Under the pieces are notes generated by a model. That model did not search any database. It saw only the letters and a program-made list of their open reading frames with translations, and was not told the origin of the DNA. From an uncultured Actinomycetes bacterium (GTDB taxonomy: Bacteria > Actinomycetota > Thermoleophilia > UBA2241), in the NCBI GenBank assembly GCA_963733255.1, contig CAVTCH010000009.1, positions 29,694 through 93,693 of the forward strand: a stretch of 64,000 bases of DNA, in the 5' to 3' direction. Position 1 is the first letter of the stretch; each line of letters starts with the position of its first letter. Below are positions 56,695 to 63,531 of this stretch, in pieces. The position numbers and the translations under genes were made by a program.

Positions 56695-57009
56695 GTGTAC
56701 GTGCCCGATTCCTGGGTCAAGGTGGCCGACGAGGGCGCGCTGGCCGACGGCCGGGCGCTGCCCGTCTACCCGCGGGGGCTCGGACTGCTGCTGGTCAAGG
56801 CCGGCGGCGACGTCTACGCGATCGCCAACCGCTGCGCGCACATGGGCTGCCCCCTCGAAGCCGGCGCCTGCGACGAGTTCATCGTCACCTGTCCTTGCCA
56901 CGACTGGCGTTTCGACGTGCGCAGCGGCGCCTTCGTGACGGCGCCCGAGATCAGCATCCCCACCTATCCCGTCCGTGTGACCTCCGGCGAGGTCTTCGTT
57001 CAGCTGTAG
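56695..57009 (+). CDS. Rieske [2Fe-2S] ferredoxin-like protein
   Basis: CAHMGCPL...CPCHDWRF; probable true start is the second GTG at 56701 (7 nt after AAGGAG). Confidence 0.75.
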   Translation: MYVPDSWVKVADEGALADGRALPVYPRGLGLLLVKAGGDVYAIANRCAHMGCPLEAGACDEFIVTCPCHDWRFDVRSGAFVTAPEISIPTYPVRVTSGEVFVQL

Positions 57010-57021
57010 CCAGGAGGCCGC

Positions 57022-57282
57022 ATGAGCGATCCGATATTCGTCTACGCGCTGAGCACCTGCCCCTGGTGTCGCAAGGCCAAGCAGTACTTCGAAGAGAAGG
57101 GCGTCGAGTTCGAGGCCGTCGACGTCGACCTGCTGCCCGACGACGAAAGCGACCGGCTGGCCGGCGAGGCCTTCGAGCTTTCGGGCTCGCGGGCCTACCC
57201 CGTGGTCAGGATCGGCGACGAGGTCGTCGTCGGCTATCTGCCGGAGCGCTTCGACGAGCTTCTGCAGGCCGGCGCCCAATGA
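57022..57282 (+). CDS. glutaredoxin-like thioredoxin-fold protein (CPWC active site)
   Basis: YALSTCPWCRKAKQYF... 86 aa. Confidence 0.7.
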   Translation: MSDPIFVYALSTCPWCRKAKQYFEEKGVEFEAVDVDLLPDDESDRLAGEAFELSGSRAYPVVRIGDEVVVGYLPERFDELLQAGAQ

Positions 57283-57617
57283 GCCACGAGGCCCGCAAAG
57301 CGGCGCTGCGCGAGTTCTACACCCCGCTCGTCACGGCGATGGGCTACAAGTTCACGCCCGACGACGATCTCGCCGACTTCCTGCTCGAACAGGAGGCCGT
57401 CCTCGAAGAGAGCAAAGGCGCGCCGTACTGCCCCTGCCAGGTCCGCACCCGCGAGCGCGAGCACGACATGAAGATCGTCTGTCCCTGCATCCCCTATCAC
57501 CGGGCCCACTTCGACGCCATGCGGCGCTGCTGGTGCGGTCTGTTCGTCCATCTCGACGTGACCGACCCCGGCATACTGCCGCAGATCGCGGCGAGCGAGC
57601 TCGGCATAGAGGAGTGA
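57279..57617 (+). CDS. ferredoxin-thioredoxin reductase catalytic-subunit-like protein (FtrC family)
   Basis: CPC...CPC...CWC cysteine pattern matches the FTR catalytic chain CPC/CPC/CHC; ATGA overlap with the upstream gene. Confidence 0.65.
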   Translation: MSHEARKAALREFYTPLVTAMGYKFTPDDDLADFLLEQEAVLEESKGAPYCPCQVRTREREHDMKIVCPCIPYHRAHFDAMRRCWCGLFVHLDVTDPGILPQIAASELGIEE

Positions 57618-57623
57618 GGCGCG

Positions 57624-58010
57624 GTGTGGACTGAGGTCGGCACGACCGGCGACATCGCCGCCGGTGGCATGAAGTTCGTCAAGCTCGGCGGCGCGCAGGG
57701 CGTGCTGTGCAACTGCGACGGCGAGTTCTACGCGGTCGGCCGGCGCTGCGGCCACATGAACGCTCCGCTCGACCAGGGCTCGCTCAGCGGCCACGTTCTC
57801 ACCTGCCCGCTGCACTTTGGCCAGTTCGACGTGCGCGACGGCGCCGTGCTCGCCTACCCGCTCGACCGCCACTTCGGCGACGAGCCGCTGCCGGCCGCCG
57901 CCCAGCGCGTGCTCGGCGTCGAGGCGCGTCTGCAGCGCAAGATCCGGGTCGACGGCCTGCGCACCTGGCCGGTCAGGGTGACCGGGGAATCGATCGAAGT
58001 CGATATCTGA
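57624..58010 (+). CDS. Rieske [2Fe-2S] ferredoxin-like protein
   Basis: CGHMNAPL...CPLHFGQF. Confidence 0.7.
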   Translation: MWTEVGTTGDIAAGGMKFVKLGGAQGVLCNCDGEFYAVGRRCGHMNAPLDQGSLSGHVLTCPLHFGQFDVRDGAVLAYPLDRHFGDEPLPAAAQRVLGVEARLQRKIRVDGLRTWPVRVTGESIEVDI

Positions 58011-58091
58011 ACACCGCGCGACGGCGCCGACAGCGCGACGTCCGGCGCACACCGAGCGACTACGAAGCAACCAATGAACAAGGAGGGATCG

Positions 58092-58685
58092 ATGCCTTTC
58101 GAACTGCCGCCCCTGCCGTGGGCCGAAGACGCGCTCGAGCCGGTCACGTCGGCGCGCACCATCAGCTTTCACTACGGCAAGCACCACCGGGCCTATGTCG
58201 ACAACCTGAACAAGCTCGTCGCGGGTACCGACCTCGACGGTCGCAGCCTCGAAGAAGTGATCGCGGCGGTGGCCGGCGACTCGGCCAAGGCGGGCGTCTT
58301 CAACAACGCCGCCCAGGTCTGGAACCACAGCTTCTTCTGGCAGTCGATGAAGCCGGGCGGCGGCGGCGCGCCGAGCGGCGCGCTGGCCGCCAGGATCGAC
58401 GCCACCTTCGGCGGGCTACCGGCCTTCGTCGAGCAGTTCAAGGCGGCCGCGGTCGGTCGCTTCGGCAGCGGCTGGGCCTGGCTTGTCGACGACGGTGGCA
58501 CGCTGAAGATCGTCACCACGGCCAACGCCGAGATGCCGGCCCCGCCGGTCAAGCCGCTGCTGACCTGCGACGTCTGGGAGCACGCCTACTATCTCGACTT
58601 CCAGAACCGTCGCCCCGACTTCGTCCAGGCCTTCTGGGACAGCCTGGTGAACTGGGACTTCGCGGCGCGCAACTTCGGCGCCTGA
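58092..58685 (+). CDS. Fe/Mn superoxide dismutase
   Basis: ISFHYGKHH, DVWEHAYYLD motifs; AAGGAGGG SD. Confidence 0.9.
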   Translation: MPFELPPLPWAEDALEPVTSARTISFHYGKHHRAYVDNLNKLVAGTDLDGRSLEEVIAAVAGDSAKAGVFNNAAQVWNHSFFWQSMKPGGGGAPSGALAARIDATFGGLPAFVEQFKAAAVGRFGSGWAWLVDDGGTLKIVTTANAEMPAPPVKPLLTCDVWEHAYYLDFQNRRPDFVQAFWDSLVNWDFAARNFGA

Positions 58686-58694
58686 GAGCCTGAC

Positions 58695-58735
58695 GGGCGG
58701 GGGCCGGCGGGCTGAAAGCCCGCCGGCCCCCGCCC
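58695..58735 (+). terminator. 19-bp perfect GC hairpin with GAAA loop downstream of SOD (no clear U-tract)
   Basis: gggcgggggccggcgggct gaaa agcccgccggcccccgccc. Confidence 0.45.
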
Positions 58736-58800
58736 GCTCTACCAACGAGAATCGCGACGGCAGGTTCGGGTAAGCTGGCCAGTACGTCTGAGCGGAGGGG

Positions 58801-59757
58801 TTGGCCATCGATCGACGGACGTCCGTGGCGGTCGAAAGAGACGAGAGTGTCGGGCGCCGGGGTCCGAGCCGTCTGGCTGCCCTGGTCGACCTGTCGCGCA
58901 CCCGGCAGGCCCTGCTGTCCGTCGCTCAGCCGGGTCTCGGAGCCGTACTCGCGCTCGGCGGACTGCCTTCGCTTCGAGTCTCGCTGGTAGGCCTGGTGGC
59001 CGCCGCGGCGGGCTTTCTCGCGGTGTTCTCGCTGAACGACGTCCTCGACAGGCGGGTCGATGCCGCCGCCTTGCGGGCGGGCAAGGGCGAGTTCGCCGGC
59101 TTCGACATCGACACGGCCTTCGAGCGCCATCCCCTCGCGCGCGGCGACCTCAGCCTGCGCTTCTCGCTGGCCTGGGTCCTGTCGCTCGCCGCGCTGTCCG
59201 CCGTGCTCGCCTTCACCCTGGCGCCGATCTGCCTGCTGCTGTTCGCGGCCGCCGTCGGCCTCGAGGTCGTCTACTGCGCCTTGCGGTCCGTGACGCCCTG
59301 GAAGACCGTCGTCTCGGGGGTCATGGTCGGCCTCGGCGGCGTGGCGGGCTGGGCGGCGGTGGCGCCGCTCTCGTGGCGTGCCCTGAGCGTGTTCGGGTTC
59401 CTCGCCCTGTGGGAGATCGGCGGCCGCAACATCGCCAACGACCTGGCCGACATCGACGCCGATCGCAGCGTGGGCGTGAAGACGGTGGCCACGGTGTACG
59501 GTCCCGCCGTCGCCGCTCGTGCCGCCTGCATCGTCGGTTTCGCGACCCTCGCCTCGACTGTGACCCTGCCCATGAGCGGCGGTCTGCTGAGCGACCTGGC
59601 GCTGGTGGCCGGCGTGTTCGTCGTCGCCTGGCCGGGAGCCAAGCTCTGGTACCGTCCGACGAGCGCCGAAGCCGCCTCGTACTTCAATGTCGCGAGCCTC
59701 TACCCGGCGGTGGTCCTGGTCGTCGCCCTGCTGCCGGCCGTGTTTGGAGCGCTCTAG
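58801..59757 (+). CDS. UbiA-family aromatic prenyltransferase (4-HB/MqnP/MenA-like)
   Basis: NDVLDRRVD first Asp-rich motif, DLADIDAD second motif, 8-9 TM; TTG start after GGAGGGG. Confidence 0.8.
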   Translation: MAIDRRTSVAVERDESVGRRGPSRLAALVDLSRTRQALLSVAQPGLGAVLALGGLPSLRVSLVGLVAAAAGFLAVFSLNDVLDRRVDAAALRAGKGEFAGFDIDTAFERHPLARGDLSLRFSLAWVLSLAALSAVLAFTLAPICLLLFAAAVGLEVVYCALRSVTPWKTVVSGVMVGLGGVAGWAAVAPLSWRALSVFGFLALWEIGGRNIANDLADIDADRSVGVKTVATVYGPAVAARAACIVGFATLASTVTLPMSGGLLSDLALVAGVFVVAWPGAKLWYRPTSAEAASYFNVASLYPAVVLVVALLPAVFGAL

Positions 59758-59759
59758 CG

Positions 59760-60854
59760 GTGTCGAGCCCCGCTCGCCCGCCCGCCTCGCTCGCTTCGTC
59801 CGCGTCGCTCGCTTCGCCCGCCCCGCCCGCCTCGTCCGACGTGGCGCTCTTCGAGGCTCACGCCGCCACCTATGACCGGATCAACACAGTCATCACGTTC
59901 GGCCAGGACGCCCGCTGGCGCCGCTGGGCGGCCGGCGAAGCGGTAAGGCGAGGCGCGGTTGTTGCCGCGGCGACAGTACCGGGGACGGCCGCGGCGGGCG
60001 CACCGGTGACCGCCCCGACGACCGCACCGGCGTCTGCCGCGGCGCCGAGTCCGCGAGCGCCGCGGCTGCTCGACGCCTGCGCCGGCACCGGGCTCGTGGG
60101 GCTGGCGGCTGCCGAGCTGGGCGCCCGGGTGACACTGGCCGACGCCAGCCCCCTCATGCTGGCGCGGGCCCGAGGCAGAGCGGCGGCCCGACGCCTTGCG
60201 GTCGACGACGTGGTGGTCGATCTGGCCGCGCTGTCGCCGCCCGCCGCGACCGGCGTGAGCGCGTCGCAGCCGGGAGCATCGCCCGGCGAAGCGGCTCCGC
60301 TTGCCCCCGCGAGCTTCGACGCGGTGACTCTGGCGTTCGGCCTGCGCTATCTGCCCGATCCGGTCGCCACGCTGCGCGCGCTCGCCGCGATGCTGCGGCC
60401 AGGCGGGGTCGTGGTGGCGCTGGAGGCGGTCGTGCCGACCGCCTCCAGCGCCACCACCCCGACGCCCGGCGCAGGCGCCACCACGACGCGAGCCGCGTCC
60501 CTCGGCATGCGCATCGCTTCCGCCGCCGCCGGGCTCTACTTCTTTCGGGTGGCGCCCCGGATCGGCGCCTTGCTGGCCGGCCGGCGCGACCTCTACATCC
60601 GGCTCACCGGGAGCGTCCGCGACCTGGGCGACGGCGACGACCTCGCCGGCCTGTTCACCAGCGCCGGCCTCACAGTGGTGAGCCGCCGCGCCTGGGTGTT
60701 CGGGCTCGTCGAGGGCCTCGTCGCCGAGCGGCCTCCGGCGCCTGTCGAAAGCGGCGTCGAGCAGCCATCGCCCCCACCGGTCCCGGGCGTCCTCGACGGG
60801 CGGTCGCGTGGTAGTGTCTGCGAACGACCGGCCCCTCCGCCCCCAGGGCAGTGA
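59760..60854 (+). CDS. class I SAM-dependent methyltransferase (UbiE/MenG-like) with low-complexity inserts
   Basis: LDACAGTG motif I, YDRIN, and post-I FD..TLAFGLRYLPDP; alternative GTG start at 59841. Confidence 0.7.
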   Translation: MSSPARPPASLASSASLASPAPPASSDVALFEAHAATYDRINTVITFGQDARWRRWAAGEAVRRGAVVAAATVPGTAAAGAPVTAPTTAPASAAAPSPRAPRLLDACAGTGLVGLAAAELGARVTLADASPLMLARARGRAAARRLAVDDVVVDLAALSPPAATGVSASQPGASPGEAAPLAPASFDAVTLAFGLRYLPDPVATLRALAAMLRPGGVVVALEAVVPTASSATTPTPGAGATTTRAASLGMRIASAAAGLYFFRVAPRIGALLAGRRDLYIRLTGSVRDLGDGDDLAGLFTSAGLTVVSRRAWVFGLVEGLVAERPPAPVESGVEQPSPPPVPGVLDGRSRGSVCERPAPPPPGQ

Positions 60855-62662
60855 AGGAAGGATACGGCGTGCCGCTCCTGCGCTTAGACGAAGACCCCGA
60901 CCAGCTCGTCCTGCACTCCCGGGGCGCCGTCTGCGCGAGTACGCGCGAGGTGGTCGAAAGCGAGCCCTTCGAGCGCGTCCTCGGGCTCTATCTCGATCAT
61001 CTGGCCGAGCACGACGGGCCGCTGCTCGAGGCGCTCGGCTTCGAGCCGCGCGACGCCGCGGCGCGCGCGAGCCTCGTCGACCTGTTGCGGCTGCTGGCTC
61101 ACAACCCGCTCGAGCGCATCGTGCGCACGTCGCCCGAACGGGGGCCGCTGCTCGAGCGCCGGGCTGCGCTGCATCGCTTCGTCGAGGGCCTCTACGACTT
61201 CTGGCGCGGCTTCGACCGGTTCCTGGTCGACCACGCCGGCGCGGGCCGGGTCGGACCCGGCGACGGCGTCGACCGGGTCTTCAACGCCAGCCTCGAGACG
61301 CTGGCGGAGCTCATCCGCGACCTGTATCGCGACGTGGCCGAGAACGTCACCGGCACGCATCCGCACGTCTACCGGCAGGTGCACGCCGGCGCCGAGCTGG
61401 GCGCGGTCGTAGGTCCGCGGCGGTGGCCGGCGCCGGCCGCCTATCGCGCCCAGCTCGAAGACATCCCCTTCGTGCGCCGTGTGCTCATGTATCCGCCGCT
61501 CATCCTGAACCCGCCGGCCACGACGCGCGCCGGCAGCTTCACCGAGGTGAGCGACGATCCGCTCGCCGGCCTGCGGCTCGACCCTGAGCGCTGGGTCTGC
61601 TACCCGGCGGTCGTCGGGCGCCTCGTCGTGTTCGTCTACATCGAGCAGCGCTTCTTTGGGCTGGGCCTTTCGCTGTCGAACCTCTTCGAGCTGGCCAGTG
61701 AGGCGCAGGTGGCGGCCGGGCCCGACGCTCTGCTGGTCTACGGCGCGCCGGCCAAAGGGCTCGCACGTTTCGGAGAGCAGCCCACCGTGTTCTTCGACGA
61801 CACGGCCAACGGGCTGCTCGTGGGCGCTCTGCCGCTCGACGATCGCTATGCCTACTTCGGCTATCTGAAGAAGATGATCCTGACGCTGCACAACGTGGCG
61901 GCCATGAAGCGCGGTCTGATGCCGTTTCACGGCGCCTTCTCGCGGCTGGTGTTGCCGGGCGGCGCCGAGGCCGGCGTGCTGCTGATCGGCGACACGGCGA
62001 CCGGCAAGTCGGAGACCCTCGAGGCGCTGCGGCTCATGGCCGGGGAGCGGGTCGCCGAGGTGCACGTCGTGGCCGACGACATGGGCTCGCTCGAGGTGCG
62101 CGAGCACGAGGGCCGCCCGCGCGTGCTCGGCTACGGCACCGAGATCGGCGCCTTCGTGCGCCTCGACGACCTGCAGCAGGGCTACGCCATAGGCCAGATC
62201 GACCGCGCCATCATCATGAACCCCCAGAAGGTGAATGCTCGCGTGGTCCTGCCGGTGACCTCCATCGACGAGGTGCAGCATGGCTACCCCGTCGACGTGC
62301 TGCTCTACGCCAACAACTTCGAGGAGGTCGACGACGGCCACCCTCTGGTCGAGCGCTTCGCCGACGCCGAGGCGGCGCTCGCGGTCTTTCGCGAGGGCCG
62401 CGCCATGTCGAAGGGCACGACCGCGGCGAGTGGCCTCGTGGCCAACTACTTCGCTAACATCTTTGGACCGGCGCAGCGGCCGGCGCAGCACGACACTCTG
62501 GCCGAGCGCACGTTCGCGGCGCTCTTTGGCGACGACGGGTTCGTCGGTCAGCTTCGCACGAGGCTCGCGCTGCCGGGTTACGCCGGCGAGGGGCCTCGGG
62601 CCGCCGCCGCGGCGCTGCTCGAACTGATAGCCCAGACAACGAGAGGAGAGGCACCCAGGTGA
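60851..62662 (+). CDS. large protein (603 aa) with C-terminal HPr-kinase/phosphorylase-like P-loop domain; N-terminal ~340 aa of unknown function
   Basis: FHGAFSRLVLPGGAEAGVLLIGDTATGKSETLEALRLMAGERVAEVHVVADD resembles HprK C-terminal block G-x-S-G-x-GKSE...ADD; GTGA overlaps on both sides. Confidence 0.55.
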   Translation: MKEGYGVPLLRLDEDPDQLVLHSRGAVCASTREVVESEPFERVLGLYLDHLAEHDGPLLEALGFEPRDAAARASLVDLLRLLAHNPLERIVRTSPERGPLLERRAALHRFVEGLYDFWRGFDRFLVDHAGAGRVGPGDGVDRVFNASLETLAELIRDLYRDVAENVTGTHPHVYRQVHAGAELGAVVGPRRWPAPAAYRAQLEDIPFVRRVLMYPPLILNPPATTRAGSFTEVSDDPLAGLRLDPERWVCYPAVVGRLVVFVYIEQRFFGLGLSLSNLFELASEAQVAAGPDALLVYGAPAKGLARFGEQPTVFFDDTANGLLVGALPLDDRYAYFGYLKKMILTLHNVAAMKRGLMPFHGAFSRLVLPGGAEAGVLLIGDTATGKSETLEALRLMAGERVAEVHVVADDMGSLEVREHEGRPRVLGYGTEIGAFVRLDDLQQGYAIGQIDRAIIMNPQKVNARVVLPVTSIDEVQHGYPVDVLLYANNFEEVDDGHPLVERFADAEAALAVFREGRAMSKGTTAASGLVANYFANIFGPAQRPAQHDTLAERTFAALFGDDGFVGQLRTRLALPGYAGEGPRAAAAALLELIAQTTRGEAPR

Positions 62663-63531
62663 AGGCGCTCTACGAGACCAACGAGACCGACCTGCAGCTC
62701 GTCAGTCGCGGCAAGGTGCGCGACGTCTACGCCCTGAGCGACGACACCCTGGTGATCGTCGCCACCGACCGCATCTCGGCCTTCGACGTGATCCTGCCCA
62801 CGCCCATCCCCGGCAAGGGCGAGGTGCTCACCCAGCTTTCGAACTTCTGGTTCGAGCGCACCGGCGACATCATCGCAAACCACGTCGTCGATCCCGAGCC
62901 GTTCGCCGGCCGCCCCGCCAAGGCGCACCTGCAGGGTCGTTCAGTGGCGGTGCGTCGCTGCGAGGCGCTGCCCGTCGAAGCCATCGTGCGCGGGTATCTC
63001 ACCGGCTCCGGCCTGAAGGACTACGAGCGCAGCGGCATGGTCTGTGGCATCGAGCTGCCGTCCGGCCTCGTCGACGGCAGCCGGCTGCCCGACACGATCT
63101 TCGCGCCGTCCACCAAGGCCGCCGTGGGCGCCCACGACGAGAACATCTCCTACGAGGGCGTCGTGAGCCTGCTGGGCCCCGCGCTGGCGGCCGAGGTGCG
63201 CGCCGCGGCGATCGCCCTGTACGAGTTCGGGGCGGCCTACGCTCGCGAGCGCGGCATCATCATCGCCGACACGAAGTTCGAGTTCGGGCTGCTCGACGGC
63301 GAGCTCATCCTGATCGACGAGGCGATGACCCCGGATTCCTCGCGCTTCTGGCCGGTCGACGGGTACGAGTCGGGCCACGCGCAGCCGAGCTTCGACAAGC
63401 AGTTCGTGCGCGACTACCTCGAGACGCTCGACTGGGGCAAGAAGGCGCCCGGTCCCGAGCTGCCGCCGGACATCGTCGACAAGACGGCGGCGAAGTACGC
63501 CGAGGCCCGGCGACTGCTCACCGCGAGGTAG
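62659..63531 (+). CDS. purC: phosphoribosylaminoimidazole-succinocarboxamide synthase
   Basis: SAICAR synthetase motifs (GKVRDVY, ATDRISAFD, ADTKFEFG); GTG after GAGAGGAGAGG. Confidence 0.9.
   Translation: MKALYETNETDLQLVSRGKVRDVYALSDDTLVIVATDRISAFDVILPTPIPGKGEVLTQLSNFWFERTGDIIANHVVDPEPFAGRPAKAHLQGRSVAVRRCEALPVEAIVRGYLTGSGLKDYERSGMVCGIELPSGLVDGSRLPDTIFAPSTKAAVGAHDENISYEGVVSLLGPALAAEVRAAAIALYEFGAAYARERGIIIADTKFEFGLLDGELILIDEAMTPDSSRFWPVDGYESGHAQPSFDKQFVRDYLETLDWGKKAPGPELPPDIVDKTAAKYAEARRLLTAR

Follow-up and report, generated by a model that had tools for sequence, protein, structure and literature searches.

Organization of the gene cluster

Four open reading frames lie on the same (+) strand at positions 58801-59757, 59760-60854, 60851-62662 and 62659-63531 of the window (the whole 64-kb stretch of DNA that was analysed). 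They encode a UbiA-superfamily prenyltransferase, a UbiE/MenG-family SAM methyltransferase, a member of an unnamed protein family which we refer to as X, and PurC (SAICAR synthetase); all features given below are on this strand. These coordinates agree with the preliminary description of the locus as four co-oriented, tightly packed genes. A perfect 19-bp GC hairpin (58695-58737; -55.1 kcal/mol, z -7.6) is located 3' of the upstream sodA gene, between it and the cluster. The hairpin has no T-tract and was not called in a strict terminator scan; we consider it likely to mark the upstream limit of the cluster's transcript. The terminator scan found no internal terminator within the cluster.

The prenyltransferase gene ends with a TAG stop at 59757 and the methyltransferase begins with GTG at 59760, leaving the 2 nt gap noted earlier. 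The methyltransferase and X had been described as sharing a GTGA start/stop overlap (60851-60854), but this exists only if X is read from the start of its longest open reading frame. A second GTG lies 18 nt further on, at 60869. A strong ribosome-binding site, the Shine-Dalgarno-like sequence AAGGAAGGA (60854-60862), precedes it by 6 nt, and the N-termini of homologues (MPLLRLD...) coincide with the residue encoded by this GTG in 30 of 31 aligned sequences. The overlap is thus probably not real. Judged from these sequence features, GTG 60869 is probably the true start of X, which would make X a 597-residue protein likely to be separated from the methyltransferase by a 14-nt spacer. The overlap between X and purC is secure: GTGA at 62659-62662 is common to the X stop and the purC start, GGAGAGG lies 7 nt upstream, and the same 4-nt overlap recurs in five related loci. 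X and purC are probably co-transcribed and translationally coupled. The GC content here is 70%, and tight packing with 4-nt overlaps is ordinary in high-GC actinobacterial genomes; by themselves, the packing and the overlaps of this cluster are no more than chance.

The family assignments of the other three genes hold, with reservations for the first two. The first gene product (58801-59757; TTG start uncertain) matches PF01040 with an E value of 5.6e-28 and 98.3 bits against a gathering cutoff of 34.2, which places it in the UbiA superfamily. Its earlier label of 'quinone-type' is unconfirmed, as it falls below every NCBIfam subfamily cutoff (best match PRK12884, 68 bits versus 269; UbiA, 47.5 versus 275; MqnP, 36 versus 420) and the NCBIfam search gave no match to any MenA model. 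A search for a relative in the PDB found none. The methyltransferase (59760-60854) matches PF01209 (UbiE/COQ5) with 76.3 bits against a gathering cutoff of 20.1. It misses all equivalog models (TIGR01934, 92.6 versus 158), although Ala/Pro/Ser-rich low-complexity inserts in this protein may depress the scores. PurC (62659-63531) exceeds the equivalog cutoffs of both NF010568 (424 bits versus 251) and TIGR00081 (237.9 versus 189.9).

Overall fold of X

Protein X (60869-62662) is numbered here from 60851, i.e. according to the 603-residue longest open reading frame. The AF2 model has a pLDDT of 82.6 and a pTM of 0.86, and when it was compared with the PDB using Foldseek the top 50 matches were all phosphoenolpyruvate carboxykinases (PEPCKs), with E values of about 1e-13 and alignments spanning 400-520 columns. 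The model has the two-domain PEPCK fold, in which a nucleotide-binding C-domain and an N-domain form a cleft. Taken together, the alignments of X with PEPCKs cover 337-520 positions and take in the N-domain of PEPCK as well as the motifs Y-x4-KK and N-x-R.

As modelled, the chain begins with a short beta-hairpin, followed by a helical non-haem domain of about 140 residues, a PEPCK-type N-domain and a PEPCK-type nucleotide-binding C-domain. The N-terminal 340 residues, in which no domain had been recognised, therefore divide into two parts. Residues ~183-334 (61397-61852) correspond to the N-terminal domain of PEPCK in both hhalign and Foldseek comparisons, and within them NLFE..A.....AAGPDA is aligned by hhalign to a 20-letter stretch of the E. 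coli enzyme. Residues 31-167 (60941-61351) form a separate, additional all-helical domain which is weakly similar to the globin fold and nearest to the non-haem N-domain of RsbR. It contains no conserved histidine and so is not a globin in the sense of that fold with a conserved proximal histidine.

X is most similar to the ATP-dependent enzymes (PckA; PF01293; PDB entries 1ii2, 1aq2 and 2pxz), with which it is collinear from the NMFIRP...PDF motif to the C-terminus. The sequence identity is only 14-17%, however, and X has about 170 additional residues at the N-terminus, comprising the beta-hairpin and the helical domain. Matches to the GTP- and PPi-dependent enzymes (PDB entries 9e32, 4wie and 8e1u) are more distant, and the PPi-dependent enzymes, at about 1,100 residues with large insertions, are unlike X.

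The preliminary description had called X similar to HPr kinase/phosphorylase (HprK), with an unmistakable C-terminal signature. The motif, GVLLIGDTATGKSETLEAL...HVVADD, is indeed present (residues 374-410), and X has the P-loop core fold with GxSGxGKSE ... DD motifs. 'Unmistakable' was too strong, since Hpr_kinase_C gave no match to X at E<=0.01. The similarity to HprK structures (PDB entries 1knx, 1jb1, 1ko7 and 3tqf; PF07475) is local, centred on GDSGxGKSE ... DD, and only ~130-150 residues match. HprK is a protein of about 300 residues with its own N-domain, whereas X has about 600 residues and a PEPCK-type N-domain. Over its whole length X resembles PEPCK and not HprK; it is a full-length, very divergent PEPCK relative and very probably a PEPCK-fold enzyme acting on a small molecule.

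Active-site residues

Alignment of X with E. coli PckA using hhalign provides counterparts for the residues involved in metal binding and phosphoryl transfer. The segment YFGYLKK (61853-61873) contains Tyr335, Lys340 and Lys341, which correspond to Tyr207, Lys212 and Lys213 of PckA at the substrate and Mn site, and His360 (61928-61930) corresponds to the Mn ligand His232. In the P-loop GDTATGKSE (61988-62014), Thr382, Lys386 and Ser387 align with Ser250, Lys254 and Thr255. Asp409-Asp410 (62075-62080) are equivalent to the metal ligands Asp268-Asp269, and Asn462-Ala-Arg464 (62234-62242) to Asn331-Thr-Arg333, which bind PEP/oxaloacetate. With the exception of Thr382, for which conservation was not tabulated, these residues are kept in at least 80% of 82 diverse family members, down to 22-30% identity. 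Across the wide family, conservation is at least 90% for Tyr335, Lys340, Asn462 and Arg464 and 80-90% for Lys341. According to PDB titles, there are mutant structures of E. coli PckA for Arg65, Tyr207, Lys212, Lys213, Ser250, Lys254 and Asp269.

Arg65 of PckA is the N-domain arginine which binds oxaloacetate/CO2. The alignment has zero confidence at this position and places a variable residue of X there; Arg175 and Arg226 of X are conserved and are candidate counterparts. The P-loop also differs: PckA has GLSGTGKTT, whereas the X family has GD(S/T)(G/A)xGKSE, with the consensus GDSGAGKSETLEAL, a wording which we take to be more HprK-like than PEPCK-like. To our knowledge, HprK has neither the Y-x4-KK nor the N-x-R motif.

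Family profile and distribution

The X family comprises at least 583 confirmed species from about 20 phyla, at 45-60% identity, and falls into 702 clusters when grouped at 50% identity. Neither Pfam nor NCBIfam has a model for it, and we found no solved structure and no paper. It is a widespread and highly conserved family that is unnamed and unstudied. A family profile matches E. coli PckA with a probability of 77% (E 2e-5, 242 columns). Among 82 diverse members, weak matches were obtained to Pfam PEPCK_ATP in 48 (best 2.3e-6) and to Hpr_kinase_C in 13, while the NCBIfam PEPCK model NF006821 matched 49 and the hpr-ser model (TIGR00679) six. X itself fails the curated PEPCK models (PF01293, TIGR00224, NF0068xx), with no Pfam match at E<=0.01 and an NF006821 score of 20.6 bits where 369 are required; the highest score of any family member on such models is 25.2 bits, for a cutoff of 26.5.

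X likewise has no match to PF07475, TIGR00679 or Hpr_kinase_N. Dedicated NCBIfam models exist for the RiPP-linked HprK-related kinases A/B; apart from hpr-ser, no HprK-type model, these included, was found for X or among the 25 commonest NCBIfam families of the 82 members (E<=0.01). We also note weak matches to DUF4914 (PF16260) in 26 of the 82 members (best E 5.6e-5), although not in X itself; at the sequence level this suggests that DUF4914 is a further relative within this superfamily, likewise uncharacterised.

Genomic context

The proposal that X is coupled to quinone tailoring called for a check of gene order in related genomes, and it does not survive this comparison. The prenyltransferase and methyltransferase genes adjoin X in the window, in three of 80 scanned genome loci and in one ENA contig (L002), all from close relatives with X identities of at least 62%. 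Loci L002, L007, L019, L086 and L088 all contain the two genes together, and in L088 they lie 5 kb from X, beyond a Rieske cluster. The pair is an independent two-gene module that in a few relatives has come to lie between mscL/sodA and X.

A functional coupling of X to purC fares little better. The two genes adjoin in 11 of the 80 genome loci and two ENA contigs (13 in total), all from a Thermoleophilia-like clade with X identities of at least 59%, and never in the remaining ~66 loci, which represent ~19 phyla. Within the clade the entire 10-kb block is syntenic and mscL is the usual upstream neighbour of X. X-purC is clade-specific synteny within a conserved housekeeping block (purA ... Rieske-Grx-FTRB-Rieske-sodA ... 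X-purC). A 646-residue database protein in which the C-terminal half of X is joined to SAICAR synthetase begins in the middle of X, and would be most simply explained as an artefact, either a frameshift or an erroneous gene call where the two genes overlap.

Elsewhere the neighbours of X differ by phylum (aroC, carB, purC, class II aldolase, DUF2294), so that no single pathway is indicated. The recurrent neighbour there is a DUF2294/MpsC-family gene encoding 110-140 residues (50-70% identity), which immediately precedes X in the same orientation in 15 of the 66 non-clade loci, from eight phyla, and in L087; there is none in the 64-kb window or in the Thermoleophilia loci. In five Planctomycetota loci X is directly upstream of aroC, with aroA upstream in three of them. 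Single loci have carB with X, purE near X (L087), a beta-carbonic anhydrase directly upstream (Pirellulales) or, in the Omnitrophota locus L079, the gene of a canonical ATP-PEPCK, pckA, co-oriented with X and two genes upstream of it. HPr/PTS families are absent from the 25 commonest Pfam families within two genes either side of X in the 66 loci and from the annotated contexts. The window cluster is not a pathway; X has come to stand beside quinone-type and purine genes through an accident of gene packing specific to this lineage.

Proposed function

X is most likely an enzyme of the carboxykinase type, dependent on Mn/Mg, that works at the oxaloacetate/PEP node or close to it. What the analysis shows is the fold, the conserved residues, the distribution and the absence of conserved linkage; the substrate, metal use and reaction direction are what we infer. 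The P-loop residues Lys386 and Ser387 would bind the phosphoryl donor, nucleotide-Mg or possibly PPi. Lys341, His360 and Asp410 would hold a second metal (Mn2+), and an enolpyruvate-type carboxylic acid would be bound by Tyr335, Lys340, Asn462 and Arg464 in the interdomain cleft. The default reaction would be oxaloacetate + NTP <-> PEP + NDP + CO2, and we give the proposal that X catalyses exactly this somewhat less than an even chance. The helical domain may be a family-specific regulatory or oligomerisation module, and in many phyla the small DUF2294 partner may act similarly. Rather more tentatively, the family could form a fourth carboxykinase class, either a true PEPCK or a (de)carboxylase of a related 2-oxo acid. 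It would combine the PEPCK fold with a regulatory domain resembling a non-haem globin, would have a DUF2294 partner in many phyla, and would serve central carbon metabolism in soil Thermoleophilia and in numerous uncultured lineages, most of them anaerobic.

X might instead combine the PEPCK fold and two-metal phosphoryl transfer with some other small-molecule acceptor, such as a 2-oxo or hydroxy acid or an intermediate of aromatic or nucleotide biosynthesis, in which case it would be a new activity and not a fourth PEPCK. We regard this as possible but on the unlikely side. The missing Arg65 counterpart is consistent with it, and the conserved residues Glu112, Tyr115, Trp118, Arg119, Arg123, Tyr159 and Arg160 of the additional N-terminal domain could reshape the pocket. 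The canonical ATP-PEPCK in L079 argues against simple redundancy, and aroC and aroA in Planctomycetota, purC in Thermoleophilia and the isolated carB and purE also speak for this reading. Against this, every PEPCK substrate or metal residue that can be reliably aligned is retained, and each of these neighbour associations is limited to one phylum and may be inherited synteny.

A protein kinase/phosphorylase of the HprK type is improbable, as X retains the N-domain of PEPCK together with Y-x4-KK and N-x-R, which build a small-molecule cleft, Hpr_kinase_N is lacking and HPr/PTS genes are not recurrent neighbours. The weak Hpr_kinase_C and hpr-ser matches in some members speak for it, and X with the upstream DUF2294/MpsC-family gene does resemble a pair of kinase and small substrate, but that gene is missing here and throughout Thermoleophilia. 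Least probable of all, at under one chance in ten, is that X supplies an ATP-dependent or regulatory step to quinone tailoring or purine synthesis together with its present neighbours. The tight packing without an internal terminator, the 4-nt overlap, the 13 loci that retain X-purC, the fusion protein and the purE gene in L087 would all fit; the few relatives with the UbiA and methyltransferase pair, its displacement in L088, mscL as the usual neighbour, the synteny of the whole block and the putative artefact behind the fusion argue otherwise.

Returning to the carboxykinase-type enzyme that we favour, if X acts at the oxaloacetate/PEP node then an anaplerotic or gluconeogenic enzyme has been overlooked in reconstructing the metabolism of hundreds of uncultured lineages, among them Atribacterota, Omnitrophota, Planctomycetota, Bacteroidales, Anaerolineae, Bathyarchaeota and soil Thermoleophilia. 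As the family stands between PEPCK and HprK in its sequence features, it could also show how small-molecule carboxykinases and protein kinases/phosphorylases diverged. For the locus itself the practical message is negative: the quinone/kinase/purine 'operon' is no conserved functional unit. In current annotation, members of the X family are labelled 'hypothetical', wrongly given as an ABC/ECF ATPase or named as PEPCK without evidence.

Fold and family of the 603-residue protein

The interesting part of this finding is not the gene cluster but the protein encoded by its longest open reading frame (60851–62662, plus strand; 603 residues, numbered from 60851; referred to here as X). Homologues of X number in the thousands and are 550–620 residues in length; they carry no Pfam domain, and their source annotations read 'hypothetical', 'phosphoenolpyruvate carboxykinase' or 'EcfA2'. 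X itself is without a Pfam match, and its sole curated match is to an NCBIfam PEPCK model and is sub-threshold, scoring 20.6 bits over residues 335–417 where the cutoff is 369. Neither X by itself nor a profile of 32 sequences retrieved anything relevant when the PDB was searched by sequence.

With 32 homologues as input, AlphaFold2 gave a confident model of X (pLDDT 82.6, pTM 0.86), and when this model was compared with the PDB using Foldseek the top 50 matches were all PEPCKs, with E values of ~1e-13 over 400–520 aligned columns. A profile of 82 diverse family members, sampled down to 22% identity, aligns residues 271–540 of X with residues 144–411 of PckA, the ATP-type PEP carboxykinase of E. 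coli (probability 77%, E 2e-5). Scanned member by member, the same 82 sequences give weak Pfam matches to PEPCK_ATP in 48 cases (best 2.3e-6), to DUF4914 in 26 and to Hpr_kinase_C in 13, while the NCBIfam PEPCK and hpr-ser models match 49 and six members, respectively. The preliminary description had regarded X as HprK-like, to be checked by profile searches and structure prediction. The motif on which it relied is real and is one of the PEPCK/HprK superfamily, but the profile matches, weak as they are, fall more often on PEPCK than on HprK, and the model indicates that X as a whole is of the two-domain PEPCK architecture and not the HprK architecture. A family-specific N-terminal domain is present, and purifying conservation is strong. 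We found no Pfam or NCBIfam model dedicated to this family and no solved structure, and literature searches on the family, on uncharacterized PEPCK-like or HprK-like families and on DUF2294 (see below) returned nothing relevant. X belongs to a large PEPCK-like family that is highly conserved and unannotated.

When one genome per species was scanned, the family was confirmed in at least 583 species, among them the cultured carriers Atrimonadaceae G-SL-SR-0-11 and Anaerohalosphaeraceae U12dextr, and an exhaustive HMM search gave 702 clusters when sequences were grouped at 50% identity. The best 80 of these species, nearly all represented by metagenome-assembled genomes (MAGs), include Thermoleophilia/Actinomycetota, Planctomycetota, Chloroflexota, Bacteroidota, Desulfobacterota, Latescibacterota, Omnitrophota, Atribacterota, Marinimicrobia, Fibrobacterota, Spirochaetota, Acidobacteriota, Verrucomicrobiota, Bacillota and others, together with one Bathyarchaeota archaeon. 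Identity to X is 45–64% in nearly all of the best 80, the closest (L086) being 75% identical.

Gene neighbourhood

Within 58801–63531 of the window, X is one of four co-oriented open reading frames, following a UbiA-superfamily gene (58801–59757) and a UbiE/COQ5-family methyltransferase gene (59760–60854) and preceding purC (62659–63531). Comparison of gene order across 88 loci carrying X homologues shows the UbiA and methyltransferase genes immediately 5′ of X in only four loci besides the window (L002, L007, L019 and L086), all close relatives in which X is at least 62% identical. In L088 the same pair lies 5 kb away, upstream of a Rieske cluster; the two genes behave as a module of their own. 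purC is directly 3′ of X in 13 loci, five of which share the 4 nt overlap; all 13 belong to one clade of Thermoleophilia-like relatives (X at least 59% identical), in which synteny extends over the entire block Rieske-Grx-FTRB-Rieske-sodA ... X-purC-methyltransferase2 and X usually has mscL as its upstream neighbour. In the approximately 66 loci from other phyla, neither UbiA, UbiE nor purC is found near X. The coupling to quinone tailoring suggested in the preliminary description, which was to be judged coincidental if such adjacency did not recur elsewhere, is coincidental on these terms, and the proposed coupling to purine synthesis reduces to clade synteny. The four-gene cluster is not supported as a functional unit, and the comparison shows that X lacks a conserved pathway context.

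All-against-all clustering of the neighbouring open reading frames yielded a single cross-phylum partner of X outside the clade, a gene for a 110–140-residue DUF2294/'MpsC' protein (PF10057, E 3e-35). In 15 of the 66 non-clade loci, from eight phyla (for example L044:9343–9777, L013:9238–9696 and L052:6989–7354), and also in L087, this gene immediately precedes X in the same orientation; its products are 50–70% identical to each other across the eight phyla. The remaining large clusters were accounted for by synteny within clades (Thermoleophilia, Bacteroidales), by generic ABC ATPases or by antisense reading frames. The 64 kb window contains no DUF2294 gene, and no solved structure of a DUF2294 protein was found. 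We considered a link to CO2/bicarbonate through this neighbour and dropped it: in the paper defining MpsAB, deletion of mpsC was without phenotype, mpsC was dispensable for complementation and MpsAB function, and outside staphylococci it was not co-located with mpsAB (PMC6689103), so the Pfam name carries no functional information.

Other associations are confined to one phylum or one locus. In five Planctomycetota loci (L035, L037, L038, L039 and L057) aroC, encoding chorismate synthase, is directly downstream of X, overlapping it by 4 nt in L057; aroA (EPSP synthase) is upstream in three of the five, and in L035 a β-carbonic anhydrase gene lies between aroA and X, directly upstream of the latter. 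In an Omnitrophota MAG (L079:7693–11761) three consecutive genes on one strand encode a canonical ATP-PEPCK (pckA), which shares 59% identity with E. coli PckA, then a protein of the CxxCxxCC type (PF03692) and then a homologue of X; among the loci compared, only this one links X to a known PEP/oxaloacetate enzyme. Single loci have carB 3′ of X (L001), a class II aldolase 5′ (L017), or an MFS transporter and purE 3′ (L087). In one database cluster representative, a predicted protein of 646 residues (P0165), a SAICAR synthetase domain is fused to the C-terminal half of a homologue of X. Since it starts mid-X and other long members have no extra Pfam domain, it is a weak functional clue and is probably an artefact, through a frameshift or the gene call, of the 4 nt by which X and purC overlap.

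Active-site residues and proposed reaction

Residues were mapped by hhalign of the family profile against a single sequence or small set, with E. coli numbering verified, because a large search with PckA gave only enterobacterial sequences of at least 86% identity and hence no diverse PEPCK profile. In this alignment Y207, K212 and K213 of PckA correspond to Y335, K340 and K341 of X, H232 to H360, S250, K254 and T255 to T382, K386 and S387, D268 and D269 to D409 and D410, and N331 and R333 to N462 and R464. The mapped positions, T382 being left out of this tally, are conserved in at least 80–90% of the 82 diverse members, and the alignment shows the predicted phosphoryl-transfer and metal-site set to be complete. 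The N-domain arginine R65 of PckA has no confidently aligned counterpart in X; R175 and R226 are conserved candidates.

By analogy, the P-loop of X would bind nucleotide–Mg, a second metal would be held by K341, H360 and D410, and phosphate would pass to or from an acid of the enolpyruvate type bound by Y335, K340, N462 and R464. The most economical such reaction would be oxaloacetate <-> PEP + CO2, and we tentatively favour it as the specific reaction of X; the conserved residues are consistent with it. The same chemistry on a different small-molecule acceptor is a possibility that we consider somewhat less likely. A protein kinase of the HprK type, for which the DUF2294 protein could be a substrate, would fit the recurrent adjacency of the two genes and the Hpr_kinase_C matches, but the predicted architecture is that of PEPCK and we consider this improbable. 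True cooperation of X with the adjacent quinone or purine genes would account for the packing in the window; given their restriction to close relatives or one clade, it seems very improbable.

Organization of the cluster and the remaining genes

The window has a G+C content of 70%, and such tight gene packing is routine in high-GC actinobacteria. The UbiA gene ends with TAG at 59757 and the methyltransferase gene starts with GTG at 59760. The tetranucleotide GTGA, described previously as a start/stop overlap, is present both at 60851–60854 (methyltransferase/X) and at 62659–62662 (X/purC). The former, however, is probably not an overlap but part of a 14 nt spacer with a ribosome-binding site, because AAGGAAGGA at 60854–60862 lies 6 nt 5′ of a GTG at 60869, the exact start (MPLLRLD...) of 30 of the 31 aligned homologues. 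A GC-only perfect 19 bp hairpin at 58695–58737 (-55 kcal/mol, z -7.6), without a T-tract, lies between the cluster and sodA on its 5′ side, and the four genes may therefore form a single transcript. The consensus terminator scan did not call this hairpin, and the promoter/terminator scan of this high-GC DNA gave nothing useful.

The UbiA gene belongs to the superfamily (PF01040, E 5.6e-28) but falls below every NCBIfam subfamily cutoff, so that of its earlier designation the prenyltransferase superfamily stands and 'quinone-type' is no more than plausible. The methyltransferase is, as had been proposed, a genuine UbiE/MenG-family member (PF01209, 76 bits), and purC is an ordinary purC (NF010568, 424 bits against a cutoff of 251). 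The methyltransferase has 364 residues in the window, compared with 331 in its orthologue in L002, an ENA contig in which X is 93% identical, and 245 in L088; the difference is due to low-complexity inserts rich in Ala, Pro and Ser, located both N-terminally and within the fold.

Upstream of the hairpin lie genes for a Rieske protein (56695–57009), a glutaredoxin-like protein (57022–57282), a protein resembling the ferredoxin:thioredoxin-reductase catalytic subunit (~57279–57617), a second Rieske protein (57624–58010) and the Fe/Mn superoxide dismutase SodA (58074–58685). The order of this block (56695–58685) is kept in more than 15 Thermoleophilia/Actinomycetota loci, and it may represent an uncharacterized redox module.
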